Source: Candidatus Electrothrix yaqonensis
GTDB taxonomy: Bacteria; Desulfobacterota; Desulfobulbia; Desulfobulbales; Desulfobulbaceae
DNA: 32,000 bases
NCBI GenBank assembly: GCA_047651235.1
Contig: CP178758.1
Coordinates: 30,001-62,000 of the forward strand
Direction of reading: 5' to 3'
Part shown: positions 9,074 to 26,658 of the stretch, in pieces
How the letters are laid out: the number at the start of each line of letters is the position of its first letter
Position numbering within the stretch: the stretch's first letter is position 1
Program-made: the position numbers and the translations under genes
Notes under the pieces: generated by a model
The model's database searches: none
The model's input: the letters and a program-made list of their open reading frames with translations, nothing else
What the model was told of the DNA's origin: nothing

Positions 9074-10348
9074 ATGACACGACCGACTCTTTCCGCAATT
9101 CGGGCAATGGAGATTCTTGACTCACGCGGTTTTCCCACTGTGCGGGTCTTTGTTGAACTGACCGACGGAACAAGAGCATCGGCTTCGGTTCCGTCCGGCG
9201 CCAGCACCGGAGAAAACGAAGCTGTGGAACTGCGGGATAAGGATGCCTCCCGCTATGGCGGCAAAGGTGTGCTTCAGGCAGTGGCTAATGTCCAGGAAAT
9301 TATAGCGCCTGCACTGCTCGGTATGGATTCTGCTGAACAGGCCCTGATTGACCGGCAGATGATTGCCCTGGACGGCACCAAAAACAAGTCAAAACTGGGG
9401 GCCAATGCCATCCTCGGCGTCTCTATGGCTGTTGCCCAAGCAGCAGCTCAATCTGCCCGGCTACCTCTGTACCGATACCTTGGCGGAGCCGGAGCACGGC
9501 GGCTGCCGGTGCCCTGCATGAACATCGTTAACGGTGGTGAACATGCTGACAACAGCGTGGATTTTCAGGAGTTCATGGCCGTCCCTGTCGGTGCGCCCAA
9601 TTTTCGCGAGGGACTGCGCTATGTAGCGGAAACCTTCCATGTGCTCAAGGGCATCCTGAACAAACGCGGGTTGTCCACAGGGATTGGGGACGAAGGCGGT
9701 TTTGCTCCGAATTTCTCCAGTAACGAAGATGCCATAGAAACGATCCTGCAGGCCGTTGAACAGACGGGATACAGGCCCGGAGAGGACATTGCCGTCGCCT
9801 TGGACAGTGCAGCAAGCTCTTTTGCTTTGGAGCAAAACGGAGAGTACGATCTGCACCGTTCCGGGACCGGCAAAATGGACCGCAGCAGGCTCATTGAGCT
9901 GGCCGGTACGTGGATCGGGAAATACCCGATTATCTCCTGGGAAGACCCCCTGGCAGAGAATGACTGGGAGGGCTTCCGGCAGTTTACCGCCAAATACGGC
10001 GACAGGATTGAAGTAGTCGGCGATGATATTTTTGTCACCAATACTGAGTACATCACCAAAGGTATCAAAGAAGGCGCAGCCAATTCCGTTCTGATCAAGC
10101 TCAATCAGATCGGTACGGTGACCGAGACCATTGAGGCGGTCCGGATGTGCCGGGAAGCCGGATGGCGGTATTTTCTTTCCCACCGTTCCGGCGAGACCGA
10201 AGATACCTTTCTGGCGGATTTTTCCGTGGCGATGGACGGCGGACATCTGAAGAGCGGCTCTGCCAGCCGCAGCGAGCGCATGGCCAAGTACAACCGCCTG
10301 CTGGAGATCGAGCAGGAGCTTGGCGAAACCACGCTGTATTATTGGTGA
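9074..10348 (+). CDS. eno: enolase (phosphopyruvate hydratase)
   Basis: ILDSRGFPTVRVFVELTDG...SVPSGASTGENEAVELRD and the SHRSGETED motif are present, and RBS AAGGAGG lies upstream. Confidence 0.96.
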   Translation: MTRPTLSAIRAMEILDSRGFPTVRVFVELTDGTRASASVPSGASTGENEAVELRDKDASRYGGKGVLQAVANVQEIIAPALLGMDSAEQALIDRQMIALDGTKNKSKLGANAILGVSMAVAQAAAQSARLPLYRYLGGAGARRLPVPCMNIVNGGEHADNSVDFQEFMAVPVGAPNFREGLRYVAETFHVLKGILNKRGLSTGIGDEGGFAPNFSSNEDAIETILQAVEQTGYRPGEDIAVALDSAASSFALEQNGEYDLHRSGTGKMDRSRLIELAGTWIGKYPIISWEDPLAENDWEGFRQFTAKYGDRIEVVGDDIFVTNTEYITKGIKEGAANSVLIKLNQIGTVTETIEAVRMCREAGWRYFLSHRSGETEDTFLADFSVAMDGGHLKSGSASRSERMAKYNRLLEIEQELGETTLYYW

Positions 10349-11664: not shown

Positions 11665-11785
11665 GCAGGGAGGAGATGCAGGAACCTAATCCGGAAAGCC
11701 TTTGAGCAAAAATCATAAAAGAGGGGAAATCGTGTGGGTGACGGGAACAGAGGTGAGTTGCCGCAGCAGAAAAGTTGTTGGCGGG

Positions 11786-11857
11786 CTAATGCTGCAAATA
11801 ACCGGTGCAAATGGAGCGCAGCGGAATTTGCATCCGAGTTAATTTGCCTTGTTAGCG
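11786..11857 (-). repeat. attC site 1 (distal end of the array; R' box degenerate, ATTAGC)
   Basis: On the plus strand: gctaatgctgcaaataaccggtgcaaatggagcgcagcggaatttgcatccgagttaatttgccttgttagc. It shares the central atggagcgcagcggaat with attC 2. Confidence 0.7.
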
Positions 11858-11858
11858 C

Positions 11859-13592
11859 TTACATTGTTTCTATTATGCCTCTGAGTTCATCCAGTTTATA
11901 ATCTGAAATTTCACCATTTTGGTGCTTCACGATAATATTTAGCGGCTTTAAATCTTTTCTTTTTGGTTTTTCGATTCCCAAAAATGATTCGAAGTCATTC
12001 TCAAAAGCATAGATTGTTTTGGTAAAAGCTGTTCTCTTTTGTTCAATAAAAGAATTGATTATTCCGTGTATACCTGCATCTTCATCCGAATCAAGCATGA
12101 CAGAATGTTGTATGCCTAAGGCAGTCATCAATGTGATGCATCGATGTATATTGAATTTTCCTAATGTATCAAACAGATACATATGTTTTTCTCTGAGGTC
12201 AGGCCAATATTCATCAAGCAAGTAGTCTATAAATACTTTTTCTGATGTGCCCTCGCAAATAATAACCTTCTTAGCAAAGAACATTGCGGCTCTTTCAGAA
12301 TCTAACCACAAAAAATACTTAACAGCCTCTTCCTCTAATTTCGATGAATGACATGGATCATCTTCGCCGAGCTTGTCCTTTCGTATTCTTTTTTTTATGC
12401 CCTCGTCAATGTCATCCGAATTCAAACAATCACAAAATTTATTATAAAGGCCAAGGTTTGCATCAATCACCTTTGAAAAAATTTTATCTGTTATTTGAAA
12501 AGTTTCTGTTTTTCCGTTGTTTTTAGAAAGTCGTATTATTCCCGACAATTGAGATGCTTGCTTGCTTACAAAATGGGGAGAGTGACTTGAAATTAAGACT
12601 TGCTCAGGGCCTTTAGATGCAAGGGACCTTAGGCTTAGGTGAAGAGAGTTCTGTTGAGCAGGATGGAGAAATGCCTCAGGTTCTTCGAATAATATTAGTG
12701 TGAAATCGGGGTCGAAGTCTTTTTTCTTACCTGCTGTTGTTGCAGCATACTTAGCAGATAATTTAATCAGAGTGAAAATTAAATGTCGCTGAAGGCCTTG
12801 ACCAAATGAAGCAAGATTAATTTGTTTCCCACCAAGCCCAACATCCTCGATATAATGCGACAGAAGGTTTTTAACAATATCCTCAGGCTTTATCGTATTG
12901 ACTGATACGCCAAACTTAATGTTCCATAAATTTATTTCTGAATTAATGTCGTCAATAAGTGAATCAATAGAAAAGCCATCTTTGGATGATTCGGTTTTAA
13001 AATCAGTATTAAATGTGTCAAAAGCCGTCTTCAATCCGCCGAATGTAGGGCTCTCAAGGACGGCCCGTTTCATAACGAAATTGACCATTTCTCGAAATGG
13101 TGATGGCCCGGAGAGCTTTAGTGTTTCATCTGTTTTGCTAACAGCTGGAATGAATATAACCTTCCCCAACTTTGCTTGAGACACATTTTTTGCACCATAA
13201 AACAGATTAATTGACAAAACACCAGATTCATAAGCGTATATATTGCTCTGGGAAGATTTAACCAGTTCTTTGTTTGATGATTGAAAATATTTTCTAACCC
13301 TTAAGATTTTGTCAGAGGATTTATACTCATCTTTTAAGCTATCTTGTTCATCTTCTGTTGTTTCAAAGGCTAATTCAATCCAACTTTCTTCATCATCAAC
13401 CTCAAACTTTGGGAAATCAGTGTCTTGCTTATACTTAAGTCCTCCATCTTCATAAAAGAGCCTAAGTGCGGTAATGATATTTGTCTTTCCAGCATTGTTT
13501 TCACCTACCAACATTGAATAGTCAGATAGCTGGCACTCCACATCTTTGATAGATCGAATGTTATGAATGACTAGTTTTTTAAGTTTCATCAC
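11859..13592 (-). CDS. OLD-family ATP-dependent endonuclease (ABC-type ATPase fused to Toprim), stand-alone
   Basis: Walker A GENNAGKTN, Walker B/signature LILFEEPEAFLHP, SSHSPHFV, and C-terminal Toprim motifs VIICEGTSEKVF and DSDED. 577 aa. It is the only ORF in its cassette and no UvrD-like partner is nearby. Confidence 0.85.
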   Translation of the reverse strand: MMKLKKLVIHNIRSIKDVECQLSDYSMLVGENNAGKTNIITALRLFYEDGGLKYKQDTDFPKFEVDDEESWIELAFETTEDEQDSLKDEYKSSDKILRVRKYFQSSNKELVKSSQSNIYAYESGVLSINLFYGAKNVSQAKLGKVIFIPAVSKTDETLKLSGPSPFREMVNFVMKRAVLESPTFGGLKTAFDTFNTDFKTESSKDGFSIDSLIDDINSEINLWNIKFGVSVNTIKPEDIVKNLLSHYIEDVGLGGKQINLASFGQGLQRHLIFTLIKLSAKYAATTAGKKKDFDPDFTLILFEEPEAFLHPAQQNSLHLSLRSLASKGPEQVLISSHSPHFVSKQASQLSGIIRLSKNNGKTETFQITDKIFSKVIDANLGLYNKFCDCLNSDDIDEGIKKRIRKDKLGEDDPCHSSKLEEEAVKYFLWLDSERAAMFFAKKVIICEGTSEKVFIDYLLDEYWPDLREKHMYLFDTLGKFNIHRCITLMTALGIQHSVMLDSDEDAGIHGIINSFIEQKRTAFTKTIYAFENDFESFLGIEKPKRKDLKPLNIIVKHQNGEISDYKLDELRGIIETM

Positions 13593-13607
13593 AGTTCCCT
13601 ATCAGGC

Positions 13608-13678
13608 GCTAACGACTGAACTCACTGGTTTTTATGGAGCGCAGCGGAATAAAAATCCAGTGCAGTGATTTGTTATGT
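13608..13678 (-). repeat. attC site 2
   Basis: GCTAAC(13608-13613) gactgaactcactggtttttat ggagcgcagcgga ataaaaatccagtgcagtgattt GTTATG(13672-13677). The arms are imperfectly paired with bulged bases. Confidence 0.8.
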
Positions 13679-13712
13679 GTTCTTTTTTTATTCAGCAGTA
13701 TTCGAATCAATA

Positions 13713-14402
13713 CTAAACTGCTAATGCATTAACCAATTTATCGAAATAAGATACCAAAACACTCTTTATTTCATTTACGCAATTAAGATACCTTTTCAAA
13801 GTTTCTTCATCCTGTCCATCCGGCCATGGATTTGTAACGTCTCCACTAAGCCCAAAAAACTCTTTGAATAAATAAACTCTCTCGTTTCTTTGAGGAAATT
13901 TCAACTCAAGCATTTTGAGAACATCTTGCGACATTACTATAATCAAATCTGCGTTTTCAAATATATCCTTTGTGATTTGTCTACACTTATGATTAGACAA
14001 TAAATCTTTACCATATACTGACTTGATGGCATATTTAGCTCCATATGAAACTTTCAAATCAGAACTGTCACTCACTGCCATAGCTTTAATTTCTAATTTA
14101 AGGTTAAGCCCTTTTTTATTAAGAAGTTGTTCTGTAATTACCTTAGCAATTGGATCTCTACAAGTTCCACCAGTGCTTAGGTAAACAAGAACTTTTGATT
14201 TTTTAATTTTTCTTATTAATCTCGATATACCACCCCATAACAAAAGAAAACATGTTGGAATCAAAAGCAGACTAATCTTTGTCAACCAATTAATGTTTTG
14301 GAATTTAGGAGACAGCTCAAGATATAAGATTCCTAATACCCAAATCAAAGCAGCAGCTATAAGTTTGCTAAATACTGGATCTTTCCAAATTTTCTTTATC
14401 AC
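13713..14402 (-). CDS. membrane-anchored LMW-PTP/ArsC-fold protein with substituted catalytic residues
   Basis: The probable GTG start at 14402 avoids overlap with attC 3; the ORF-track start 14444 lies inside the attC. There are two N-terminal hydrophobic helices. VLVYLSTGGTCRDP aligns to the LMW-PTP P-loop V-C-x-G-N-x-C-R-S-P with Ser in place of the nucleophilic Cys. HKCRQITKDIFENADLIIVM matches, and VTNPW replaces the DPY acid-loop motif. Confidence 0.65.
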   Translation of the reverse strand: MIKKIWKDPVFSKLIAAALIWVLGILYLELSPKFQNINWLTKISLLLIPTCFLLLWGGISRLIRKIKKSKVLVYLSTGGTCRDPIAKVITEQLLNKKGLNLKLEIKAMAVSDSSDLKVSYGAKYAIKSVYGKDLLSNHKCRQITKDIFENADLIIVMSQDVLKMLELKFPQRNERVYLFKEFFGLSGDVTNPWPDGQDEETLKRYLNCVNEIKSVLVSYFDKLVNALAV

Positions 14403-14418
14403 ATTGTTCTCTCTTACA

Positions 14419-14489
14419 CATAACGACCAAGCTGTGCGGCGCAAACGAAGCGCAGCGTAGTTTGCGTCCGAACGAGCGCCTTGTTAGCT
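14419..14489 (-). repeat. attC site 3
   Basis: CATAAC(14419-14424)...gcgcaaac gaagcgcagcgta gtttgcg...GTTAGC(14483-14488). The TAA stop of the 222 aa ORF lies inside the core. Confidence 0.8.
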
Positions 14490-15152
14490 CTTTTCTGAAT
14501 CTTCTTCATCTGAAATATATGAAACCAGCATTCTACCAAGTGTAGTAAGGCTAGTTGTTTTACCCCGTTCCTCTGTCAAGCCGAGCCTTAAAAGCGTTGC
14601 TTTATAACTATCTTGCAATGCGGCCCTTTCATGCTGCTCTTGAGGTGCCCCCATTGTTCTGCTTATAGGATTAAGTATTTCCGGGTGTTTCTCTACCCAT
14701 TCAGAATGAGGCCCCTTACCAAGTACTGGGTTTAATGAATAGTAAATCAGCCAAACAATCTCTGGATCGGTGAGTTCTCTATACAAGTTGATTAGCTTCC
14801 GAGCCTCTTCATATTTCATCTCTTTTGCTGATAATGATTTTGCTACCAATCTAGCCAACCGCTCTTTTCTTTCCTTAGAAACAGATCTCGATGCTTGAAC
14901 TATTCCTTCCTCAAATATGTCGAGTCCCTCTTCAGCTTTGAGATGTTCTTTAAAGGAGGAAAATCGCTCATCTAAGTGAGCCACATTATTCTCAAGAGTC
15001 TTTAGGAAACTGACAACTCGCTCGAACCGCAGATTTGGCACTACTGCATCTAGCGTTTCCCCCACTAACGTTCCAATAAATGGGAGCGCGCCTGCCGCCG
15101 CTTTCGCAACACTAACCAATCTGTCCCTAGAGTTTGTTTCAAGCTGCTTCAT
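14484..15152 (-). CDS. hypothetical protein (single-gene cassette)
   Basis: A 222 aa, mostly helical ORF with RBS AAGGGG upstream and its stop codon embedded in attC 3. The N-terminal LPFIGTLVGETLDAVVPNLRFERV faintly recalls Abi_alpha/DUF4393-type proteins. This is unverified. Confidence 0.7.
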   Translation of the reverse strand: MKQLETNSRDRLVSVAKAAAGALPFIGTLVGETLDAVVPNLRFERVVSFLKTLENNVAHLDERFSSFKEHLKAEEGLDIFEEGIVQASRSVSKERKERLARLVAKSLSAKEMKYEEARKLINLYRELTDPEIVWLIYYSLNPVLGKGPHSEWVEKHPEILNPISRTMGAPQEQHERAALQDSYKATLLRLGLTEERGKTTSLTTLGRMLVSYISDEEDSEKS

Positions 15153-15169
15153 CCGAACCCCTTTTTAGA

Positions 15170-15260
15170 GCTAACGCATCACATCACCGGCAGCAAAAGG
15201 CAGAGCGACGAGGAACGAGGAGCGGCGCTTTTTGCTGTCCGAGTGCATGTGTTTGTTAGC
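15170..15260 (-). repeat. attC site 4
   Basis: GCTAAC(15170-15175) gcatcacatcaccggcagcaaaagg ... cgctttttgctgtccgagtgcatgtgttt GTTAGC(15255-15260). Its arms are closely related to those of attC 5. Confidence 0.85.
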
Positions 15261-15270
15261 ATTTTTATTG

Positions 15271-17262
15271 TCATATATCACATTTTAGCGACTGCATTCT
15301 GACAAGCTTTCCCCAACGCTCCCCTAGCAATGATATGCCATAAAGTGATGGATTTACTTCAAGATACCGATCAATAAGTGTCCGTGTTTTTTCTGTTATC
15401 TTATTTGTGGCACCATTAGCAGTATTGATTAGATAATAATCAAAAGTTTCTTTATTCCTTAAAGGAATTATTGCAATGACTTTTTTTGCCTCGACCATGT
15501 CCGGTATGCCGTTCAACCTATATAATTTTCTGGTTTCATGTTCATACGACATTCCATATCTCTTTAATAAAGGCAATAAATGTTCTCGCTGGGAAAATAC
15601 TGAAGAGGCATAGCTTTCTAGCTTATGTGCGTCAATGGTAAGTTTCTTACTCCACTCTTCTGCATCACTGCTACTTATGCCAGATGATAAAGAATATTTG
15701 TGCCATATCGACAAACAGCCTTTAGTTGCGACATCTATTGAAACGCCATGTTTATCAGGATTATAGAATACTGGCGAGCCATATTCTAATAAGAAACTTC
15801 CTGTGCCAAACGAACCAATATGCTTTGAGTTATTAATTACAAAATCGTATGTCTCTTTAGCGTCTTCATGTGTTTCACCTGGAAAACCAAAGAAAGTAAA
15901 GCAGTTTATAAAAATCCCACTGTCAGCTGCGGCAATCAGATTCTTTTTTATCGTATCTTTTGATGGGAAATTGGTTTTATTCATCAACCCCAAGACGCGC
16001 TCGGATGCTGATTCTAAACCAACATACATTACCAGAAAGCCTTTTTCATACAAATTACTAAATATCTCTTTTGAAAAAGACTCTTCAAAACGCATGATTC
16101 CAGAAAACGACCAACCACTTTGCTTTTTAGTTGGAAAAACGCGACCAATATCGCGTAATAAACGAGGTGGCATGGCCTCGTCATTAAAGCAAAAGTTGCT
16201 TACTCTATATTTGTTACTCAGCCTTTCTATTCTTTCCAAAAGCTGTCTTGTTTTTACATAATTAAACTTTCCGCCATAAACTTCGCTGTGTGTACAAAAT
16301 TCACACTTACCCCAATAACAACCTCGATATGATAATATTGGAAGTGTAACTTCAGAAGTAAAATATTTTTCGAAATCTATATCAGAAAAATCTGGATCAA
16401 CATCTACGCTAATATTGCGATAATCGTGAGAAAATTCACCATTAAAAACAGTGTTTCCAGACTCCATAAAATAGATATTGGGAACATCTTCAGTAAGGGC
16501 CTTGCCAGCACAATTGTTATTTAAAATAGCAGAACAAGGAATTTCCCCCTCTCTTTTGACGACTATATCAAAATAGATAGTAAACCATCTTGAAGGAATA
16601 GACGTTCGATCAAGCAATCTATATAGCACCGTACCGCCAACAACCACAGTTTTTTTTGTATTCTCTTTTAGTGCTTTTCCCATCATTAAAGTCATCAACA
16701 ATTGACTATAGCCAACACATGAAATCCCGATTATTGATGCGTTATGGACGTCAGGACTATCAAGGAAGCTCTCCACAAACCGTTGAAGGAGGCTATTTTT
16801 CTTTGATAGAATTTTTTCTAATTCGTCAACATAAAATCCTGATTTTGAATGCATTTCCATGCCGAATGGCGAAATAGAAACCGGTTTGGTAAGTAATGAA
16901 ATTGTTTCCAGGTATGAAGTCAATATTCGCGTTGCAATATAGCTGTTCTGTAAATACTTGTTATTATCAGATTCTCCGCCCTTTAATAATTCATGAATCG
17001 AGGTTCTTATATGGCGTATATTAGATATAGTCGCTCTAATTGCTTCTTTTTTTTGACAGTCAAAGCCATGATTATCCTTTAGCTCTTCCAACAGAATGTT
17101 TGCCGCTTCATCTGATAGTAAATAGTGATAAAAGTCTATGTTTGCATCAATACAACCAACGCGGTAGCCTTCATTTCGTAACCAGCCTGCAAGTGTGGAA
17201 ATAGTTAGCGCGGGTTGAAATGGACTCCATTGTGGAGGGAAAATTAGCGTTATATCATGCAT
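15271..17262 (-). CDS. B12-binding-domain radical SAM enzyme (putative peptide-modifying enzyme)
   Basis: The N-terminal MHDITLIFPPQWSPFQPALTISTLAGWLRNEGYRV and VVVGG are typical of the cobalamin-binding Rossmann-like domain of class B radical SAM enzymes. The cluster motif is RGCYWGKCEFC. The start at 17262 is preferred because the hairpin at 17289-17326 overlaps the longer ORF-track start. Confidence 0.8.
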   Translation of the reverse strand: MHDITLIFPPQWSPFQPALTISTLAGWLRNEGYRVGCIDANIDFYHYLLSDEAANILLEELKDNHGFDCQKKEAIRATISNIRHIRTSIHELLKGGESDNNKYLQNSYIATRILTSYLETISLLTKPVSISPFGMEMHSKSGFYVDELEKILSKKNSLLQRFVESFLDSPDVHNASIIGISCVGYSQLLMTLMMGKALKENTKKTVVVGGTVLYRLLDRTSIPSRWFTIYFDIVVKREGEIPCSAILNNNCAGKALTEDVPNIYFMESGNTVFNGEFSHDYRNISVDVDPDFSDIDFEKYFTSEVTLPILSYRGCYWGKCEFCTHSEVYGGKFNYVKTRQLLERIERLSNKYRVSNFCFNDEAMPPRLLRDIGRVFPTKKQSGWSFSGIMRFEESFSKEIFSNLYEKGFLVMYVGLESASERVLGLMNKTNFPSKDTIKKNLIAAADSGIFINCFTFFGFPGETHEDAKETYDFVINNSKHIGSFGTGSFLLEYGSPVFYNPDKHGVSIDVATKGCLSIWHKYSLSSGISSSDAEEWSKKLTIDAHKLESYASSVFSQREHLLPLLKRYGMSYEHETRKLYRLNGIPDMVEAKKVIAIIPLRNKETFDYYLINTANGATNKITEKTRTLIDRYLEVNPSLYGISLLGERWGKLVRMQSLKCDI

Positions 17263-17271
17263 TCTTGTTTT

Positions 17272-17326
17272 CCAAACAAAGATAAATACCATGAGCATCT
17301 CGATCTTAATACCAAGACGCTCATGG
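17272..17326 (-). terminator. attenuator/terminator-like hairpin between the peptide genes and the radical SAM gene
   Basis: Minus-strand CCATGAGC(17326-17319), a 22 nt loop, GCTCATGG(17296-17289), followed by TATTTATCTTTGTTT. Confidence 0.45.
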
Positions 17327-17346
17327 TAAAGATGGCTATCTTCATT

Positions 17347-17505
17347 TTAGTTATTGTTATTGTTTTGATACGTATCCGTCATTCTTAGAACTGAGTTTGA
17401 GGCTGAAAGCACTTCAAGCATATCCTCTTCGGGTAATTCTCGAAGTTTCTCCACAATTTCTTTCTGAAATGCTAAGGACGCCGAATCGGGTTGCTCATTA
17501 TCCAT
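17347..17505 (-). CDS. putative RiPP precursor peptide 2 (52 aa)
   Basis: Not in the ORF track. RBS GGAGGA lies 6 nt upstream of the ATG at 17505. Sequence: MDNEQPDSASLAFQKEIVEKLRELPEEDMLEVLSASNSVLRMTDTYQNNNNN*. It is a paralogue of the adjacent peptide. Confidence 0.65.
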   Translation of the reverse strand: MDNEQPDSASLAFQKEIVEKLRELPEEDMLEVLSASNSVLRMTDTYQNNNNN

Positions 17506-17507
17506 AG

Positions 17508-17675
17508 CTAATCCTCCGCAACAATTGCCTTATTATTGTTGTTTTGGTATTCAACCGCCATTTTTAAAATGGAATTATTAGCTTGAAGTACTTCTAGCAT
17601 GTCCTCGTCACTGAGGGTTTTTAGTTTCGCTACGATCTCTTTGTTAAAAGCAGCAGCTTTTTCTTCATTAGACAT
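17508..17675 (-). CDS. putative RiPP precursor peptide 1 (55 aa)
   Basis: RBS AAGGAG lies upstream of the ATG at 17675. Sequence: MSNEEKAAAFNKEIVAKLKTLSDEDMLEVLQANNSILKMAVEYQNNNNKAIVAED*. It shares F-x-KEIV-x-KL..L..EDMLEVL...NS-x-L-x-M...YQNNNN with peptide 2. Confidence 0.7.
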   Translation of the reverse strand: MSNEEKAAAFNKEIVAKLKTLSDEDMLEVLQANNSILKMAVEYQNNNNKAIVAED

Positions 17676-17777
17676 AGTTCGTCTCCTTATTAAGGCTTTT
17701 GGAAAGTGATTAAACAAATGCTCTCGATGTGAAAACTAAATAGTATGCATAGGCCTCACCTCCTTTTCTTTATTGAT

Positions 17778-17960
17778 GCTAATGCCGAGTTGACCGTAAT
17801 TTTCCTGGTATAATGGCCGCTTGCGGTTGATTATACCAGGAAAATTTCGAGTCCAACGTTTGGTTCCGAAGGCGCGCAGCGCCGCAGGAATCAAATGTTG
17901 GGCCGGTACGGTCAACTCGGCATTCCAAAGGCGTGGCCCGAAGGGGCGCGCCTTTGGAAC
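17778..17960 (-). repeat. 183 bp structured ORF-less element, copy 1, inserted in attC 5
   Basis: I found no differences from 20306-20488 when comparing by eye. It splits GCTAA|C of attC 5. It contains a 16 bp long-range stem (aatgccgagttgaccg / cggtcaactcggcatt), a perfect 17 bp AT-rich hairpin, a 15 bp hairpin and a 9 bp GC hairpin. Confidence 0.9.
17830..17856 (-). promoter_or_regulatory. candidate extended -10 promoter inside element copy 1, facing the peptide/rSAM cassette
   Basis: On the minus strand: TTGGAC(17856-17851), a 15 nt spacer, then TGGTATAAT(17838-17830). A mirror TGGTATAAT lies on the plus strand at 17806-17814. Confidence 0.35.
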
Positions 17961-18051
17961 GCCACACATCACCGGCAGCAAAAAGTAGTGTGGCTGTAGC
18001 GAAGCGTAAGCCGCGCTGCTTTTTGCTGTCCGAGTGAATGTGATTGTTAGC
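17960..18051 (-). repeat. attC site 5 (its GCTAA half-core is displaced to 17778-17782 by the 183 bp element)
   Basis: c gccacacatcaccggcagcaaaaag ... gctgctttttgctgtccgagtgaatgtgatt GTTAGC(18046-18051). The TAA stop of the 115 aa ORF lies inside the core. Confidence 0.8.
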
Positions 18052-18394
18052 TTTTATCTTTCTCAACTACAGCTATATGTGCAGGTGGGCGAGTTCTTGA
18101 CATAGGCTGTAACGTTGGTTGTGTAGGTTGTGGCGTTCCAGGAGCCGCTCCGCCTCCAACCAGAATTACTACAGATGGAGTAAACCCGGGTATTTGAACA
18201 GGTGTACCTTGTTGTGGGACAAACGCAGAAGCATCATAGCTTTGAACTGATGGTTGTGTTCCTCCAATTTCCACTTCTACATCTTTTCTTGAACCATCAT
18301 CCAGCTCTAATTGAGTTCGAATTACTTCTCCAGTTTGATTATCAACCGTCAATACATATGTTGTCACATTCGATTTTTCTTCTTTCTTGCTCAT
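18047..18394 (-). CDS. hypothetical 115 aa protein with a Pro/Gln/Thr/Gly-rich C-terminal half (possible large precursor or substrate protein)
   Basis: RBS GGAGG precedes the ATG at 18394 (MSKKEEKSNVTTYVLTVDNQTGEVIRTQLELDDGSRKDVEVEIGGTQPSVQSYDASAFVPQQGTPVQIPGFTPSVVILVGGGAAPGTPQPTQPTLQPM...). The stop is embedded in the attC 5 core. The gene overlaps the upstream rSAM gene by 53 nt. Confidence 0.6.
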   Translation of the reverse strand: MSKKEEKSNVTTYVLTVDNQTGEVIRTQLELDDGSRKDVEVEIGGTQPSVQSYDASAFVPQQGTPVQIPGFTPSVVILVGGGAAPGTPQPTQPTLQPMSRTRPPAHIAVVEKDKS

Positions 18395-20282
18395 TGCAAA
18401 CCTCCATTTGGATTGTGGGGAAATTAGAAAATATTTTGGATAGAATTGCGTCCCCAATTATGAGCAAACCTATCCACTTTGAACCTGCTTCTATTACCAA
18501 GTTGGATTCTTTTAGCTGTTTTAAAAACCTATTCAAATGAAACTGCTGTATGTTTCTTTTATTTAATTCTTTAGCCAGAGAACTAAGGCTGATAGGCTTG
18601 TCTAGAAGCGCTAAGATAATAGACTCCTCATCACTAAAGTAATGATATCTCTTTTTTGAAATAATTCTTTCATCTACAACAATAGAGGTAGAATCCTTAT
18701 AAGTAAGGAACTCAAGCCTTGGCCTTTTATGTGAGTAATGTTTCCATTGCTGACAAGCGCTTACTAATGACTTGCTTTTTCGGTTTAGATTAAACCCTTC
18801 GCTGTAATCAAACTCAAAATAATAAGCAATATTATTGATTTCTTCTTCCGTTAACCTGTATACCTCTTTATATGTTTTCATAGGGCGAATATTTAGAAAT
18901 CCATGCTGATCAGGGCTGGTAAAGTTTGGACTAAAACGATCAAGACGAACTGCCGCGGTAGCTTGCGGTGGTTCTAAGTGATGAATATTCCAGACAACAT
19001 CCGTTTGAAATTGATAACTACTCTCATTTTCATTAGGAAATCCAAATAATAAGTTCCAAGCAATACCAACACCGTATTGTTTTGCCCATTTCAACAATGC
19101 AATATTTTGCGCTCCAGACACTCCCTTCCCAATCAATTTTAATGTGTCATCAGAGAAACTCTCGATCCCTGGTTGAATTGAAATTACCCCTGCTTCTTTA
19201 AGTTTTTTAACGTCACTTCGCTTGATATTAGACTTAGTTTCAAAGAAGATTTGTATATCATGTGGGATGTGGGATAATTCCTTGATAAAAGTTTTAAAAT
19301 ACTGATGATCAATAATGTTATCCGTAAAGTCTATTTTTTTTACATCATATTTTTTCGATAGAGCAAGTAACTCATAAAGCGCTCTATTTGGCGACTTTCT
19401 CCTATAGGACATAGTCCTTCCGTTTAGGCCACAAAATGTACAGTGACTTTTCTGGCCCCACCAACAACCTCGGGATGATTCAATAAATATTCCTTTTCGA
19501 CCTGACAAAGAATAATTTAGGTTTTTTACATAGTTAAAATAATCATCAAAATCTGGATAAGGAAGGCTGTCTAAATTCTCAGTTAAGTCATATGGTGAAT
19601 TGATAAAAATCTTCCCATTCTTTCGTATGGAAAAACCATTAGTTTCTTCTTCACAGTTATGTATTTTTCTTCTAAGGAGCTCTGGAAAAGAAGAGTCGGC
19701 CTCACAGGTCGATACGTAATCGATATGGTTAAAGCTCTTCAATAGTTGGCTCCCCATTTCCGATTCACAATTTGCACCACCAAAACATATCGAAATAGAG
19801 GGGAAATTATTTTTTATCTCTCTCGATAAGTAGAGACTAGGAAATGTTTGTTCGAAAGTATTTGTAAAACCTACCACGCCATATTTAAACCACGGCGCCG
19901 ACTTTAGACATAGCGAGATAAAATGATTAACTACCCCTCGAATGTCAATAACTGCGTCAAGAAGATGCTTAGGCATAGGCCAGCCACTTTCTAAAAGAAA
20001 GTTGTCGATATATGAAAAATCCGACTTGGAGAGCTCATAATATTCTGATGAGAAGACCCACTCTCCTAGTAACAGGTCATTTGGCACTACAAACCCATCA
20101 ATTTCCAAAGTGCCACACATGAATTCATAACGTTCCGAAGATATTAATTTGGCAAACAGAACATTGAAGTCAAAAATGTCAACATTATGACCTTCATTTT
20201 CCAGAATTGATTTTAGAAGCCCCAAGGCCAGAGATGGTCTTTCAGCTGAAGAGAACGGCATATTTATTAATGCAACATTCAT
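18342..20282 (-). CDS. B12-binding radical SAM enzyme of the RiPP-maturation type (TIGR03975-like), with a C-terminal winged-helix/RRE-like region
   Basis: MNVALINMPFSSAERPSLALGLLKSILENEGHNV..., GEWVFS and SSRGCWWGQKSHCTFCGLNG (C-x7-C-x2-C) match my memory of the rSAM_ocin_1 family. The C-terminal FSDEESIILALLDKPISLSSLAKELNK...FLKQLKESNLVIE looks like a PqqD/RRE-type wHTH. Confidence 0.8.
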   Translation of the reverse strand: MNVALINMPFSSAERPSLALGLLKSILENEGHNVDIFDFNVLFAKLISSERYEFMCGTLEIDGFVVPNDLLLGEWVFSSEYYELSKSDFSYIDNFLLESGWPMPKHLLDAVIDIRGVVNHFISLCLKSAPWFKYGVVGFTNTFEQTFPSLYLSREIKNNFPSISICFGGANCESEMGSQLLKSFNHIDYVSTCEADSSFPELLRRKIHNCEEETNGFSIRKNGKIFINSPYDLTENLDSLPYPDFDDYFNYVKNLNYSLSGRKGIFIESSRGCWWGQKSHCTFCGLNGRTMSYRRKSPNRALYELLALSKKYDVKKIDFTDNIIDHQYFKTFIKELSHIPHDIQIFFETKSNIKRSDVKKLKEAGVISIQPGIESFSDDTLKLIGKGVSGAQNIALLKWAKQYGVGIAWNLLFGFPNENESSYQFQTDVVWNIHHLEPPQATAAVRLDRFSPNFTSPDQHGFLNIRPMKTYKEVYRLTEEEINNIAYYFEFDYSEGFNLNRKSKSLVSACQQWKHYSHKRPRLEFLTYKDSTSIVVDERIISKKRYHYFSDEESIILALLDKPISLSSLAKELNKRNIQQFHLNRFLKQLKESNLVIEAGSKWIGLLIIGDAILSKIFSNFPTIQMEVCNEQERRKIECDNICIDG

Positions 20283-20305
20283 TTATGGCTCCTGTCTCAT
20301 TTAAA

Positions 20306-20488
20306 GCTAATGCCGAGTTGACCGTAATTTTCCTGGTATAATGGCCGCTTGCGGTTGATTATACCAGGAAAATTTCGAGTCCAACGTTTGGTTCCGAAGG
20401 CGCGCAGCGCCGCAGGAATCAAATGTTGGGCCGGTACGGTCAACTCGGCATTCCAAAGGCGTGGCCCGAAGGGGCGCGCCTTTGGAAC
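20306..20488 (-). repeat. 183 bp structured ORF-less element, copy 2, at the promoter-proximal end of the array
   Basis: No differences from 17778-17960 by eye. It is flanked by GCTAA| and |C, so removing it restores GCTAAC (GGTTAGC on the cassette strand). Confidence 0.9.
20358..20384 (-). promoter_or_regulatory. candidate extended -10 promoter inside element copy 2, facing the rSAM gene at 20282
   Basis: Same sequence as 17830-17856. TGGTATAAT lies about 75 nt upstream of the ATG at 20282. Confidence 0.35.
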
Positions 20489-20765
20489 CATTGATTATCA
20501 GAGAATCAGTCCTTATAGTCACCGAAACCTGATATTCTCAGGGAGAAATACCCTGAGATTCGACTTATCAGTATATTTTCCCAGATAACTTGAATTCTTT
20601 ACTGTTATCTGATAATATATTCCTGAATAATTTATTATCAGAGCACCATTATCTGTCTCTAAACGCATCTTTCAGATATGTCAAGAGAAAACACAAGAGG
20701 AATGAAATATCGGGAAAAGATGGGAAAAATGAGCTGATCATACGTTACTGATTTTAATTTCCGTC

Positions 20766-21395
20766 TCATCCTTTCTTTTCATCAATTCCCCGGTTCGCCA
20801 GTTCGTCCGCCCGTTTGTTCTGTTCCCTGGGCACATGGGCGACGGACCAGTCCTGCAGCCCGGCAAGCAGCTGCTTCACTTCCAGAAACAGGGGCTTGAG
20901 GGCTGCGTTCTTGACTTTGTACTGCCCCTGAATCTGCCGGACAATGAGCTGGGAATCAAGAAAGATTTCCAGGTGGCTGCAGCCCAGTTCCAGTGCGGAC
21001 TGCAGGCCGAGGCGCAGGGCCTTGTACTCGGCCACATTATTTGTGCATTGGCCGAGATAGAGCGACCGGACGGCCAGTTCCTGTCCTGCGGTATCCAGCA
21101 GTACAGACCCGGCTCCGGCCTCTCCGGGATTGCCTCTGGAAGCACCATCGGTGAACAGCCTGCAGGAAAGCGCGGAACCGGTGGAAATGCCGCTGAGTTT
21201 TTTCTGCTGTGCCTGTGCAGGCTCGATTTGTTCGATTAATTTCTCTTTTCCGTACAGAACAGCCCGCACGTTAGCCGGGGAATACGCAGGAAAGAGCTGC
21301 TCCAGAGTGCTGTCCGGCAGCTGCTCCGCCAGCACAGCCAGGACAGCGGCCCTGTTCATGCTGTTCATGCCGCGCTCATGCTTCTGCTTCATCAT
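20766..21395 (-). CDS. RNase HI-family (RNase H type 1 / RVT_3-like) protein with an N-terminal extension
   Basis: LFTDGASRGNPGEAGAGSVL...NNVAEYKALRLGL...LDSQLIV...REQNKRADELAN carries the RNase H DEDD-type motifs. The exact start is uncertain, since the ORF overlaps the upstream gene. Confidence 0.85.
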   Translation of the reverse strand: MMKQKHERGMNSMNRAAVLAVLAEQLPDSTLEQLFPAYSPANVRAVLYGKEKLIEQIEPAQAQQKKLSGISTGSALSCRLFTDGASRGNPGEAGAGSVLLDTAGQELAVRSLYLGQCTNNVAEYKALRLGLQSALELGCSHLEIFLDSQLIVRQIQGQYKVKNAALKPLFLEVKQLLAGLQDWSVAHVPREQNKRADELANRGIDEKKG

Positions 21396-22104
21396 CTTCC
21401 GGCGGCAGATAATACAGGGTGCGCTGGCAGGTCGGGCAGGTATGTATCTGCTCGCCCAGGCGGATCTCGTTGTATTGCTGCGGCGGAATGGTCATAAAAC
21501 ATCCCTGACAGACAGCATCAATCACCTGGACAACCGCAAGGCCGTTGCGCCGCTGCAGCACCTTGTTATACCGTTTCATCCTGGAGGCCGGAACCTCTCC
21601 GGCAAGTTTCTCGCGTTTTCCCTGCACTGCCAGACGTCGGCCGTTGAGTTTTTCAATCTCCTTCTCAACCTCGGTAGTTGCCTCGGCCAGCAGTTTCTTT
21701 TCTCCGGTGCAGAGATTCTCCAGCTCAGCTGCTTTGATCTCTTCCGCCTCCACCTGCTCCATAGCCTGGAGCAACTGTTCCTCGCTCTCCTTGATCACCT
21801 TTTTGGCGTCTTCGATCTCTTTGAGTAAAGCCTGGTGCTCCCGACTGGTCTGCACCTGCATCATCTTGCCCTGACGCTCTTTAATCCGTTCTGCAGCATC
21901 TTCACTGGCCGCCTTGATATCACGCTGGCTCTGCTCAAGTTCCGTTGCTTTTTCCCTGCACTGAGCAGCAAGCGTTTCCTTTTCGGCAATCGCCTGCTCG
22001 CGTTCTGTCAGTTCCTGCCGTTTCTGTTCGATCTTCCGATCAAATTCGGCAAGTTCCGTATCGAATTCCTGCAGGGTGATAAGCACGCTGATATCTTCTT
22101 TCAA
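21376..22104 (-). CDS. COG1579-type coiled-coil protein with a C4 zinc ribbon
   Basis: A long coiled coil is followed by CQGCFMTIPPQ...HTCPTCQRTLYY. Its position between Nif3 and RNase H genes is a commonly seen arrangement. Confidence 0.85.
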   Translation of the reverse strand: MKEDISVLITLQEFDTELAEFDRKIEQKRQELTEREQAIAEKETLAAQCREKATELEQSQRDIKAASEDAAERIKERQGKMMQVQTSREHQALLKEIEDAKKVIKESEEQLLQAMEQVEAEEIKAAELENLCTGEKKLLAEATTEVEKEIEKLNGRRLAVQGKREKLAGEVPASRMKRYNKVLQRRNGLAVVQVIDAVCQGCFMTIPPQQYNEIRLGEQIHTCPTCQRTLYYLPPEDDEAEA

Positions 22105-22245
22105 TGTATACTCCTCATCTTGTTGATCAACTGTCTTTTTTGGGGCCGAGATGCATTCGGCGTGTCAACTCGCTTCTTCTTTTTTGTTCGGGATAAAAAA
22201 TACCCTTTTGCACAATGTCTGCATAATTCGACTGACTCCTTCCTG

Positions 22246-23064
22246 TCAGTTTCTTTTTCCTGCCAATCTGAGGGGAGGTTCTTGGCAGGCGCAGTGCACT
22301 GCCACCTCCATGTCCACCTGCTGCAGTCTGTTGCTAAGCAGCCGGGCCAGTCCCTGGACCGCAGGATATTCCGTGGCAAAATGGCCGCCGTCGATGAGCC
22401 AGAACCCGGCCTCTTCTGCCCAGCAGGCAATGTTATGTTTGATCTCGGCGGTAAGAAACACATCTGCTCCGGCTGTCAAGGCGGTCTCCGAAATATCGGA
22501 ACAGGAGCCGCCGCAGACAGCAACCCTGGTTACCTGCTCAGGATGCGGCCCGGCCTCCAGCAGCCAGGGCGGTGAAAGAACTTCGTGAACTTTGGCAAGA
22601 AAATCCTCCGGCAGGACAGGGTCCGGCAGAACGCCTATCCGTCCCAGACCGCACGGCGCTGCACAGCTCTCCGACTTTTCCGGCAGCAGGGGCGTGGTAT
22701 TCTGCAGTCCGAGCAGCTCTGCCAGCACATCATTGACCCCGCCGCAGGCAGCATCAAAATTGGTGTGGCAGCCGACCACATTGATCCCGGCCCGGACAGC
22801 GGCAGCAAGAAACCTGCCATCAGGGCGGTCAGTGCGCAGGCTTTTCAGAGGACGGAAAATGGCGGGGTGATGGGTGATGATCAGTTCGGCACCGCAACGC
22901 TGTGCCTCGGCAAGCAGAGGCACAAGGGGATCAAGGGCAAGCAGCACCGAAGAGATCCGGTCATCCGGATTGCCGACAAGCAGACCGACATTGTCCCATG
23001 TCTCAGCGAGGCCATCCGGTGCGATATTCTGAAGAATGTTAAGCAGATCCTGAATTTTTGCCAC
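22246..23064 (-). CDS. Nif3-like dinuclear metal centre protein (YbgI/GTP cyclohydrolase 1 type 2 homologue)
   Basis: IQDLLNILQNIAPDGLAETWDNVGLLVG, ITHHP and GHFATE motifs are present. The probable GTG start is at 23064; the ORF-track start is 23094. Confidence 0.88.
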   Translation of the reverse strand: MAKIQDLLNILQNIAPDGLAETWDNVGLLVGNPDDRISSVLLALDPLVPLLAEAQRCGAELIITHHPAIFRPLKSLRTDRPDGRFLAAAVRAGINVVGCHTNFDAACGGVNDVLAELLGLQNTTPLLPEKSESCAAPCGLGRIGVLPDPVLPEDFLAKVHEVLSPPWLLEAGPHPEQVTRVAVCGGSCSDISETALTAGADVFLTAEIKHNIACWAEEAGFWLIDGGHFATEYPAVQGLARLLSNRLQQVDMEVAVHCACQEPPLRLAGKRN

Positions 23065-23290
23065 AATACAAAGAAAAAGAGGCACAACCCGCAAAGGGTG
23101 TACCTCTTGTCCTAACGTTTAGTCTATACCGCTCTGCCGCAGAAACTTACGGTGCAGGCGGGCATTTTCGCGCAATGTATTCGGAGTCAACAGACGGCTG
23201 TACACAAATTATTTAATCAAAATACAACGCAGGCAGAAACCTCCGCTGCACAGTTATCCGGCACGTCAAAGAAATAGAGAAATAAAAAAT

Positions 23291-23367
23291 TGGTGGGCCT
23301 ACTTGGACTCGAACCAAGGACCTACCGGTTATGAGCCGGTGGCTCTAGCCAGCTGAGCTATAGGCCC
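23291..23367 (-). tRNA. tRNA-Met (anticodon CAT); a lysidine-modified tRNA-Ile2 cannot be excluded
   Basis: Minus strand: GGGCCTATAGCTCAGCTGGCTAGAGCCACCGGCTCATAACCGGTAGGTCCTTGGTTCGAGTCCAAGTAGGCCCACCA. It is a 77 nt cloverleaf with a 7 bp acceptor stem, GTTCGAGTC T-loop and encoded CCA. The anticodon stem is not of the initiator type. Confidence 0.93.
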
Positions 23368-23492
23368 CCAATTTTCTCGAACCATATATTATTACAAGCA
23401 ACGCTGTTTTGGTCAATAAAAAACGACAGCATTCCGGAAAAAGCCCCCTGCAGCAATCCGGTCAGTTCTGACCGCTTCTGATATACGCGGAG

Positions 23493-24248
23493 TTACAGCA
23501 CCAGCTTCAGCACCACAAAACCACCAACCAGCAGGACAATAAAGGCTATAGAGAGCAGATTGAAATATCGGTCGATAAAACGCCGGGCAGGATCGCCCCA
23601 TTTATACAGCAGCCAGGCCACAATAAAAAAACGGAAGGCTCTGGACAGCACTGAGGCGAGCAGAAAAACAGGCAGGTTGACACGGGCCACCCCGGCGGTG
23701 ATGGTCACCAGCTTATAGGGCAGGGGGGTCAGGCCGAAAATAAAGACAATCCAGGCATTCCAGTGATCGTAGACCTGAAACAGATATTCACCGCCCAGCG
23801 AACTGCCCATGCCCTTGATAAGATAGGCCGGAAGCGCGATATCCATGCGCCCGTTGACTTCCGTCAGCGACATATGGGCGATATGTTCAACTATCCACTG
23901 TCCGACTGTTTCCCAGCCGAACACCCCGATTCCGTACCCGGCCAGCCCGCCGACCACTGAAGCTGCAGTGCACCAGAAGGCAAATTTGTACCAGCGGCCT
24001 GTTGCTCCCAGCACTAGGGCGACAAGCAGGACATCCGGCGGAATAGGGAAAAAACTTGATTCAGCAAAGGAGATAAGGACAAGAGCATGCAGACCGTAGG
24101 GGCTGTCTGCCCAGCCGAGCATCCAGTCGTACAAGCGGCGCATCAGGCCGGGCTTCTTTTTTCCGCTGCCGGACTGTCTATAATGCTCGGAGTGCTGCTC
24201 CGACACCTCTTTTTCTTCTTCCTGTATAGTATTTTCTGTATTTCCCAT
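23493..24248 (-). CDS. YqaA/DedA-family (SNARE-associated) membrane protein
   Basis: YGLHALVLISFAESSFFPIPPDVLLVAL is a typical YqaA motif, and there are multiple TM segments. Confidence 0.8.
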   Translation of the reverse strand: MGNTENTIQEEEKEVSEQHSEHYRQSGSGKKKPGLMRRLYDWMLGWADSPYGLHALVLISFAESSFFPIPPDVLLVALVLGATGRWYKFAFWCTAASVVGGLAGYGIGVFGWETVGQWIVEHIAHMSLTEVNGRMDIALPAYLIKGMGSSLGGEYLFQVYDHWNAWIVFIFGLTPLPYKLVTITAGVARVNLPVFLLASVLSRAFRFFIVAWLLYKWGDPARRFIDRYFNLLSIAFIVLLVGGFVVLKLVL

Positions 24249-24251
24249 ATG

Positions 24252-24908
24252 CTATTCGTTCCACCCATACGCGCCGATCAGATTCACAAAACGTACCTGA
24301 CCGATAGAATGCACCTGAATTTTTCCGTCCCGTTTGAGCAGAAGCTGCAGCTCCTGTTCCTCCTGATTTCCCACCGGAATGACCAGTCTTCCTGGGTCGG
24401 CCAATTGTTCAATCAATGGTTGAGGAATTTCCGGCCCGCCTGCGGTGACCAGAACGGCATCAAAAGGAGCCTCGTCAGGCCAGCCAACAGTGCCGTCATC
24501 AATGCAGGAGATAATATTATGATAACGCAGCCGGTCAAAAACCTTTCGAGCCCTGCCGAGCAGGGAATGGATGCGTTCCACCGTATAGACCCGCTCACAG
24601 AGCCGGGAAAGCACCGCAGCCTGATACCCGGATCCGGTACCGATCTCCAGCACCCGTTCATGCCCTCTGAGCTGCATGGCCTGGGTCATCAGGGCGACGA
24701 TATAGGGCTGGGAGATGGTCTGATTGAAACCGATGGGCAGGGGATGATCGCCATAGGCTTTTGCCTGCATGGCATCTTCAACAAATTTATGCCTCGGTAT
24801 CTCACTCATAGCCTGCAGGGTCACGGGATCCTGAATTCCCTGCCGGACAAGCAGTTCCACCATCCGCTGCCGATGGATGACAAAGGAAGAATGCGCTGCC
24901 GAATTCAC
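24252..24908 (-). CDS. pcm: protein-L-isoaspartate O-methyltransferase
   Basis: [21 protein letters not shown] and [15 protein letters not shown] motifs are present; 218 aa. Confidence 0.92.
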
Positions 24909-26600: not shown

Positions 26601-26658
26601 TTATTCCTATCCGCCTGTCAAGTATTGCCGGGTCGTCGGGAAGCGGATTCTCTCCTTT

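Follow-up and report, generated by a model that had tools for sequence, protein, structure and literature searches.

The 32-kb window considered here, which is the whole stretch of DNA that we analysed, comes from Candidatus Electrothrix yaqonensis, a cable bacterium. Between positions 11785 and 20488, it holds an island of five gene cassettes, each closing in an attC site. The cassettes and the sizeable open reading frames (ORFs) of the island all lie on the minus strand, and the island is foreign in composition, with a cassette GC content of 33-45% compared with 55-56% in the flanks. We conclude with good confidence that the island is a chromosomal cluster of attC sites lacking an integron integrase (CALIN) and that its cassettes stem from integron integrase activity. 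The array is a genuine and rather ordinary CALIN, whose unusual extra is a 177-base gene-less hairpin unit that sits exactly at two cassette junctions.

The attC sites occupy 11785..11857 (attC 1, the distal one), 13607..13678 (attC 2), 14418..14489 (attC 3), 15169..15261 (attC 4), and 17960..18051 (attC 5), all on the minus strand. A first-pass annotation of this DNA had proposed five attC-like palindromes at these places, and DNA folding bore this out: each site forms an imperfect, bulged hairpin with end boxes of the YTAAC/GTTRR type. On the + strand of the window, the 3′ arm carries two or three single bulged bases at all five sites (three at attC 1), and the + strand is also the one with the more stable fold in five of five. 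Extrahelical bases of this kind are expected on the bottom strand of an attC site, and the bottom strand here is the + strand of the window because all of the cassette genes are on the minus strand. As had been noticed from the start, attC 1 and attC 2 resemble one another, sharing a 17-nt centre with ATGGAGCGCAGCGGAAT in common, and so do attC 4 and attC 5 (the type B family), which have arms of 18-19 nt in common. The layout of attC 2 is that of the estX attC site of class 1 integrons.

The terminal R″/R′ boxes are canonical in attC 2, attC 3, and attC 4. In attC 1, R″ reads GCTAAC, and the degenerate R′ reads A|TTAGC (ATTAGC), with A in place of G at the crossover point. This site has only partial relatives among metagenome attC sites and is a degenerate distal member of the array, as first proposed. 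In attC 5, R′ now reads G|TTCCAA (GTTCCAA) because the 177-nt unit is inserted at its crossover point. No Rfam family matched the attC sites or the 183-nt repeat described below when the island was searched at gathering thresholds and at E ≤ 5.

We scored the window with R1, a covariance model trained only on 13 attC sites of annotated plasmid class 1 integrons and used as a surrogate for the attC model of IntegronFinder. The training sites were those of estX, psp, aadA2, cmlA1, aadA1, qacL, a gcu, catB11, aac(6′)-Ib, a toxin-antitoxin cassette, catB3, blaVIM-4, and aac(6′)-Il; the pairing was the canonical R-box/L-box pairing, and the window was run with filters off. Over the 32 kb, R1 matched attC 2 with 31.2 bits (E = 7e-6), attC 4 with 20.7 bits (E = 3e-3), and attC 3 weakly, with 9.7 bits (E = 1.9), in each case on the minus (gene) strand. 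The only other matches with E < 1 were to a hairpin within the 183-nt repeat, found twice with 24.1 bits. For comparison, the top score across 1.22 Mb of Desulfobulbaceae and other loci was 16.8 bits. The R′ boxes of sites 1 and 5, ATTAGC and GTTCCAA, explain why the model missed them. The first-pass annotation had been prepared to give up the integron reading if an attC model failed at all five sites; R1 matched two of them and, weakly, a third. A regular-expression-plus-fold scan for attC sites, which was crude and too strict, recovered only attC 4.

Evidence for the identity of the attC sites that we judge to be stronger than that of R1 came from environmental relatives. The arm pattern of attC 4 and attC 5, ACCGGCAGCAAAA…TTTTGCTGTCCGAG, occurs in at least 120 JGI metagenome contigs. 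In 309 kb of metagenome loci with this pattern, R1 found 115 attC sites, among them one-strand arrays of 9-11 sites. We aligned 77 distinct environmental copies with the two window sites. A 5-nt box ending in AAC is present in 72 of the 79 sequences, and the opposite side is mostly GTTRRR. At six pair positions of the outer arm, 94% of the cells are paired, whereas 14-52% are paired with a shifted partner. The outer arms also show compensatory changes between A-T, G-C, and C-G pairs (for example, CACATC/ATGTG, CAAATC/ATTTG, and CGCATC/ATGCG), and one bulge position is constant across all 79 family members, with variable base identity.

Several of these environmental sites adjoin integrase genes. 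Over 66 nt, attC 3 is 100% identical to the first-cassette attC site of contig L098, which lies beside the 5′ end of the intI gene carried by that contig. The identity of attC 4 to array attC sites is 94-96% over 81-90 nt, and that to the first-cassette site next to the intI gene of contig L119 is 94% over 89 nt; an attC site in contig L122 matches attC 5 with 93% identity over 86 nt. The integrase proteins of L119 and L154, which adjoin such attC sites, are 45-48% identical to IntI1, and the L119 protein shares 70-74% identity with annotated integron integrases of Desulfurivibrio, Desulfobulbus, Desulfobacterales, Syntrophales, and others. L098, L119, and L154 have the canonical divergent intI arrangement with an attI site ending in G|TTA, and the attI regions of the linked integrases have GGAAAATTTCCACTTATTGA in common upstream of G|TTA. 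The polarity of the attC sites in the window agrees with that in the intI-linked contigs. For at least three of the attC sites, there is support from outside the window. The attC types of the window belong to a very large environmental family, with one arm pattern found in at least 120 metagenome contigs, that is tied to integrases whose nearest named relatives are Desulfobacterota (Desulfobulbales) enzymes. Like sediment Desulfobacterota integrons (L098, L119, L154, and L213), the array has attC sites of the same families on the same bottom strand relative to the genes. Unlike it, those integrons have a divergent intI gene and the attI motif GGAAAATTTCCACTTATTGA…G|TTA, and the window has neither.

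The cassettes carry diverse genes. The most distal cassette (11790-13612) has a single gene (11859..13592, minus strand), which encodes an OLD-family ATPase and TOPRIM nuclease of 576/577 aa. The protein matched Pfam AAA_15 and OLD-like_TOPRIM, its best PADLOC model was "Old" (E = 5e-57), and its stop codon abuts the GCTAAC box. The next cassette (13613-14422) encodes a transmembrane segment joined to a low-molecular-weight phosphatase (13713..14444, minus strand; Pfam LMWPc, E = 2e-14). The N-terminal transmembrane segment was read from the sequence; the maximal ORF extends back into attC 3, and the true start is probably the GTG at 14401. The third cassette (14423-15174) holds p222, an ORFan of 222 aa (14484..15152, minus strand) that had no match in Pfam, NCBIfam, PADLOC, PHROG, or PDB sequences and formed a singleton cluster.

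The two remaining cassettes are larger and each encode a radical SAM (rSAM) protein. In the cassette at 15175-17782, the B12-binding radical SAM protein rSAM675 (15271..17298, minus strand; start probably at 17262) matched Pfam Radical_SAM and B12-binding and scored 90 bits against TIGR03975, under the cut-off. The same cassette has two small ORFs (17347..17675, minus strand) for peptides of 52 aa (17347-17505) and 55 aa (17508-17675). Both peptides have the leader-like motif EIVxKLxxLxxEDMLEVLxAxNSxLxM in common, and both contain YQNNNN, which is C-terminal in the 52-aa peptide and stands 7 residues before the end of the 55-aa peptide. Neither matched a Pfam or NCBIfam family or a known precursor family. 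Given their position beside the rSAM gene, they are probably precursors of ribosomally synthesized and posttranslationally modified peptides (RiPPs), and they may represent a new precursor type for a B12-rSAM enzyme. The proximal cassette (17960-20310) encodes rSAM646 (18342..20282, minus strand), a RiPP-maturation radical SAM C-methyltransferase of 646 aa that scored 599 bits against TIGR03975 (cut-off, 282) and matched Pfam Radical_SAM. It also encodes p115 (18047..18394, minus strand), a 115-aa ORFan without a match in Pfam, NCBIfam, PADLOC, or PHROGs and likewise a singleton cluster, although a gene call for it exists on Logan contig L001 (2.4 kb, breaking inside the repeats), the sole result of exact look-ups with window proteins. 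These cassettes suggest that whole RiPP modules, with precursors and a B12-rSAM methyltransferase, can travel as cassettes.

The positions of starts and stops follow the cassette boundaries. Both p222 and p115 end within an R″ box, their stop codons falling in the GCTAAC of attC 3 and attC 5, respectively, and together with the abutting stop of the OLD gene they agree with the first reading that several stops lie in or abut the core. That reading had also put the ORF starts 15-25 nt after each junction. We found most start codons ~20-28 nt past G|TTAGC or G|TTATG, and the claim did not hold for the peptide/rSAM675 cassette, where the first start is ~100 nt downstream. Neither did the description of the cargo as largely uncharacterised: the OLD nuclease, the low-molecular-weight protein tyrosine phosphatase-like protein, the TIGR03975 enzyme, and the second B12-rSAM protein with its peptides were all recognised, leaving only p222 and p115 as ORFans. 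Expression of the cassettes would have to depend either on read-through from the AT-rich leader and the NIF3/Zn-ribbon/RNase H operon, which has the same orientation, or on the TGGTATAAT box of each gene-less unit, which is extended -10-like and faces the downstream rSAM cassette.

Directly after unit copy 1, at 17736-17765, a strong Shine-Dalgarno sequence, AAGGAGGTGA, is followed by a four-codon mini-ORF (MHTI, stop). This mini-ORF lies ~60 nt upstream of the first precursor-like peptide.

A CALIN is defined as two or more attC sites on the same strand, spaced by less than 4 kb, with the integron integrase absent (PMC4889954). On the minus strand, where all five attC sites lie, they follow one another with start-to-start spacings of 1.8, 0.8, 0.75, and 2.8 kb. 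A Pfam scan of the main ORFs in the window gave no integrase domain, and six-frame tblastn with three IntI proteins gave no intI pseudogene (best E = 0.19), so that the window is free of intI over 11.3 kb proximal to the array (20489-32000) and over 11.8 kb distal to it. We therefore class the array as a CALIN, since the spacing and strand of the attC sites and the absence of an integrase agree with the published definition (PMC4889954). A complete or sedentary integron would have intI with an adjacent attI site and the cassette promoter (Pc) before the first cassette, and the array has no such platform.

The array is separated from the RNase H-like gene by a spacer of 277 bp (20489..20765) that, as previously described, is AT-rich (34% GC). 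No attI site was recognisable in this spacer: the motif of the linked integrase clade is absent, and the spacer is unlike the attI regions of L098, L119, and L154. TTATC(A/T)G, which gives GATAA on the gene strand, occurs five times in the spacer, and one pair of these repeats lies inside a 24-nt direct repeat (20485-20508 and 20625-20648). The repeats could be an operator or promoter region.

Some observations weigh against classing the array as a CALIN. R1 missed attC 1 and attC 5 even with filters off, and its match to attC 3 was weak. Two of the cassettes are large (2.35 and 2.6 kb) and contain several genes, which is atypical. Finally, it is quite possible that an intI gene lies elsewhere in the genome. 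The array resembles published CALINs (described in 2016, PMC4889954, and with IntegronFinder 2) in its promoterless co-oriented cassettes, in the lack of intI or an intI pseudogene within ~10 kb, in its size, about five attC sites being typical, and in a cargo unrelated to resistance cassettes. It differs from them in its cable bacterium host, its two 2.35-2.6 kb multigene RiPP modules, and the gene-less structured unit at two of its junctions. No paper in the library that we searched links Electrothrix with integrons; with this array, integron cassettes are now placed in a cable bacterium.

The OLD cassette provides an independent view of a cassette boundary. It is 92.3% identical at the nucleotide level, over 1763 nt, to a gene of Ca. 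Magnetomoraceae gMMP-15. The homology runs from window position 13612 (|TTAGC, the first base of the cassette) to 11850, just past GCTAACA. An endpoint placed so precisely at |TTAGC is direct evidence that recombination made the joint at the cassette boundary and that the OLD gene has moved between families. The gMMP-15 copy (contig L090, 9978-11740) has no attC site and lies in native-looking low-GC DNA. This is a clean case of cassette-borne horizontal transfer, with an OLD defence nuclease shared by a cable bacterium and a multicellular magnetotactic bacterium. The protein resembles P2 Old and the class 1 OLD nucleases in being a single-gene ATPase with a TOPRIM domain, and a defence role is predicted for the cassette. 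Defence genes are known integron cassette cargo, as one preprint describes (bioRxiv 10.1101/2024.07.02.601719). This case is unlike such cargo in that a nearly identical gene exists in Ca. Magnetomoraceae without attC.

On contig L090, a remnant resembling group II intron domains V and VI (9869-9977; RF00029, 31 bits, subthreshold) lies 37 nt upstream of the start of the cassette homology. It may bear on how cassettes arise or disappear.

The gene-less unit is 177 nt long and occurs twice in the window, on the minus strand. Copy 1 (17783..17959) lies at the crossover point of attC 5 as G|unit|TTAGC. Copy 2 (20311..20487) lies at the proximal end of the array with the flanks ATGG|unit|TTAGCT. 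Each contains an inner attC-like hairpin, which in copy 1 is a 53-nt GCCCAAC…GTTGGAC hairpin (17851..17903, minus strand) and in copy 2 lies at 20379-20431. The copies form a direct repeat (17778-17960 and 20306-20488) with a perfect core of 183 nt, which a repeat search extended to 188 nt at 99% identity. This repeat accounts for the odd core of attC 5 and for the apparent end of the array at 20488; the first-pass annotation had overlooked it and let the array simply end there. On the gene strand, both copies read G|TTCCAAAGG…CTCGGCA|TTAGC. When the 177 nt of copy 1 are deleted, R′ of attC 5 again reads GTTAGC and is perfectly complementary to R″ (GCTAAC); when copy 2 is deleted, ATGG|TTAGCT heads the first cassette.

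A third copy is present elsewhere in the same genome within a predicted protein (P0001 = XOF33598.1, 94% amino acid identity). It is followed by …GGCATTAGC and then by unrelated AT-rich sequence, compatible at the protein level with a TTAGC junction. Its upstream flank, when back-translated, may correspond to an attC-like 3′ arm, although this is a weak inference. Searches of JGI metagenomes and IMG/VR with exact patterns gave no further copies, blastn against 80 metagenome loci gave none, and a comparison of the translated frames with protein sets of 5.8 billion and 1.84 billion sequences returned only XOF33598.1.

The unit is highly structured. A 16-bp stem closes two long hairpins to form a three-way junction, and a separate 11-bp hairpin follows. 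Folded as DNA, its + strand reaches -73.4 kcal/mol and its minus strand -65.0, a difference of 8.4 with the polarity of all five attC sites. The 196-nt stretch that contains copy 2 (20300-20495) has a fold z of -12.6. The inner 53-nt hairpin scored 24.1 bits with R1 on the minus strand (E = 4e-4) and 17.9 bits on the + strand. If the unit were circular, pairing of A|TTCCAAA at the junction with TTTGGAAT, at a distance of 25 nt, would give an attC-like structure of 158 nt and a "cargo" of ~25 nt.

That the unit is itself an integrase-mobilised gene-less cassette, with a non-canonical core, is the likeliest single reading, although its odds fall just short of even. In its favour, crossover points lie at both of its ends (G|unit|TTAGC) in both window copies, as they do in a cassette. 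Several points count against it. The boundary box is AAT/ATT (TTTGGAAT/ATTCCAAA) rather than AAC/GTT, and the main stem is perfect, without an unpaired spacer or bulges; with these two features, recognition by an integrase is putative. The unit has no canonical attC site of its own at the junction, and R1 did not recognise it as a whole. All three copies stand at GCTAA|C, a box found in only 19% of family junctions, which hints at target specificity or at TTAGC belonging to the unit. In the window, moreover, each copy stands before an rSAM cassette, which could instead point to a regulatory leader. Each copy has a palindromic TGGTATAAT, an extended -10 consensus, directed at the downstream rSAM cassette, but a promoter scan listed no promoter in the unit (the -35/-10 spacing is 15 nt).

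Somewhat less probable, though to be taken seriously, is that the unit is not a cassette at all. It could be a miniature element that targets junctions, such as one resembling the palindrome-associated transposable elements (PATEs) of IS200/IS605 and recognising GCTAA| on single-stranded DNA, or it could be a 5′ leader or regulatory element common to the two rSAM modules that recombination has copied. The identical GCTAA at the 5′ flank of three of three copies without target duplication, the perfect bulge-free stems, and the failure of the attC model to recognise the whole unit all point this way, as does the position of both window copies directly upstream of B12-rSAM cassettes with a perfect TGGTATAAT box toward the genes. 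However, no transposase was seen nearby, Rfam gave no match (riboswitches and IS605-type RNAs included), the junctions agree to the base with the integrase crossover point, and the strand asymmetry is that of attC sites. A selected RNA fold would also sit poorly with two non-synonymous changes deduced in copy 3, for which no compensation is visible. Simple co-descent with the rSAM genes is excluded: the units are 100% identical, and the adjacent rSAM genes are 28% identical over the sole alignable 212 aa. Bridge RNA (IS110) and retron noncoding RNA were rejected on anatomy, as the unit has near-perfect stems without internal loops and no recombinase or reverse transcriptase gene lies nearby.

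A more elaborate proposal, which we consider rather unlikely, is that the unit is a selfish, cargo-less cassette. It would consist of a giant three-way-junction recombination site carried by the integron integrase through an AAT/ATT crossover, would home to G|TTAGC cassette junctions, and would wake silent cassettes with its outward extended -10 promoter, in this case the two RiPP rSAM modules of an array whose platform promoter is gone. ORF-less cassettes with sense promoters are known in Vibrio superintegrons (Blanco et al., bioRxiv 10.1101/2023.11.21.568050). Like them, the unit is short and ORF-less, is present in several copies between gene cassettes, and has a promoter-like box facing the next cassette. 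It differs in that its promoter is predicted and in that it consists almost entirely of a three-way-junction hairpin and a terminal hairpin, bulge-free and with an AAT/ATT box. If the unit is integrase-mobilised, functional attC sites would have a wider range of sequence and structure, and promoter-bearing gene-less cassettes would have a case outside Vibrio.

The unit also shares site-specific insertion in attC with IS1111-attC elements and group IIC-attC introns, and both were considered as candidates and rejected. IS1111-attC elements insert after AACAAnTCAT within attC and have a transposase, whereas the unit lies at AA|C and has no ORF. Group IIC-attC introns insert at TTGT| and are longer than 0.6 kb; the unit again differs in its insertion point and had no Rfam intron match.

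We then compared the locus with related genomes. The RNase H-like gene (RNH; 20766..21395, minus strand; Pfam RVT_3 and RNase_H) is a core gene flanking the array and is followed on the right by genes for a CT398-type zinc ribbon protein, NIF3, a tRNA, a VTT-domain protein, and PCMT. On the left lie core genes for NAD kinase, enolase, and proteins of 167 aa (p167) and 220 aa (p220). The nearest genomes by RNH are Electrothrix species, with 66-72% identity, the closest relative compared being the one at 72%. In six of six relatives (L002-L007), rnpB comes after RNH and the island is absent. The distance between RNH and rnpB is within 40 nt in four of them (L002, L004, L005, and L007). The other two, E. 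marina (L003) and E. laxa (L006), have a low-GC insert of 0.7-0.9 kb with a small ORF between the two genes, and neither insert contains attC. The RNH-rnpB intergenic site is therefore a recurrent insertion point. In E. yaqonensis, rnpB was not found anywhere in the 32-kb window, and the genes beyond the array (p220, p167, and enolase) are not near RNH in any relative. The missing rnpB and the non-syntenic genes on the far side place the array at a synteny break. A comparison from the 220-aa gene to the RNase H gene had been suggested as a way to see the empty site; with synteny broken, the relatives offer no simple empty site.

An integron integrase of a kind common among Desulfobacterota would have put the cassettes together, exchanging the folded bottom strand (the + strand of the window) at AA|C, that is, G|TT on the gene strand. 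Two 100% identical units beside rSAM genes that are 28% identical indicate recent recombination activity and argue for an integrase acting in trans. Most likely, a rearrangement or an event mediated by an integrase parted the array from its platform and brought it to the locus, although it could also have arrived by insertion at a secondary site. The evidence favours a rearrangement or split; a simple secondary-site insertion is less compatible with it, and decay in place is the least compatible.

The version of this history that we put first, tentatively, is that the array is half of a complete integron split by inversion or translocation. In that case the platform of intI and attI, together with rnpB and further cassettes, would now be elsewhere in the genome, and the cassettes would still be mobilised in trans. 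The RNH-rnpB linkage of all six relatives is broken exactly at the array, rnpB is gone from the window, and the left neighbours p220, p167, and enolase are not near RNH in relatives. The third copy of the 177-nt unit elsewhere in the genome, with its possible attC-like upstream flank, and the identity of the two window copies, which implies recent activity, fit the same history. Splitting of complete integrons is also one of the routes to CALINs (route iv) listed by Cury et al. in 2016 (PMC4889954). However, no Electrothrix sequence was among the top 120 relatives of the L119 IntI, and no intI from the same genome was retrieved.

We consider it unlikely, though not strained, that an integrase inserted a multicassette circle at a secondary non-att site (of the attG type, GWT) downstream of RNH. 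The proximal junction, …CAATGG|TT…, fits a G|TT crossover without attI, and in E. marina and E. laxa the region 3′ of RNH has received other inserts that are small and low in GC. Integrases have been documented to drive insertion at GWT sites (bioRxiv 10.1101/2022.09.11.507474). Such an insertion would be expected to leave rnpB beyond the array, but an unrelated inverted gene block is there instead. The 277-nt AT-rich leader is also left unexplained, and the inserts of the relatives contain no attC.

That a sedentary chromosomal integron decayed in place, with intI and attI deleted, is improbable. The cassette orientation does predict a platform on the RNH side, and the AT-rich 277 bp with its repeated TTATC(A/T)G could be a remnant of one. 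However, there is no intI pseudogene and no attI motif of the linked integrase clade, six relatives lack an integron at the locus, and no space is left between the array and the conserved operon. Thus, of the two classes first offered, a CALIN or a decayed sedentary integron, the CALIN stands on its attC support and lack of intI, and decay in place is the less likely, with rnpB at this spot in six relatives and the attI motif absent. Finally, that the palindromes are terminators or repetitive extragenic palindromic (REP)-like repeats in an ordinary genomic island can be set aside almost entirely. Their position at gene ends and the atypical GC content of the island would fit such a reading, but an independent attC model matches sites 2, 4, and, weakly, 3, sites 3, 4, and 5 are 93-100% identical to attC sites of integrase-linked arrays, bulges and R boxes are conserved, T-tracts are lacking, and a terminator scan performed only at chance level.

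Insertions into attC sites were also seen in other contigs that we surveyed. In L110, L140, and L160, a type B attC site is broken at …ATTGT|GTGTGCCCGGCATGGGC or …ATTGT|GTACGCCC, and the interruption looks like the 5′ end of a group IIC-attC intron, one base off the integrase crossover. In plasmid class 1 integrons, IS110-family elements of the IS1111-attC type lie in attC after AACAAnTCAT (L084, 4600-6090; L088, 6380-8040).

Two further features of the window lie outside the array. A c-di-GMP-I riboswitch (4381-4464, minus strand; 49.9 bits) is located upstream of unannotated ORFs at 3930-4352 and 3381-3920, and its region forms a second low-GC patch (37-41% GC). At 27717-28346, a truncated DDE_5 transposase fragment lies in a lower-GC stretch (27-29 kb), a sign of other mobile-element activity near the locus.

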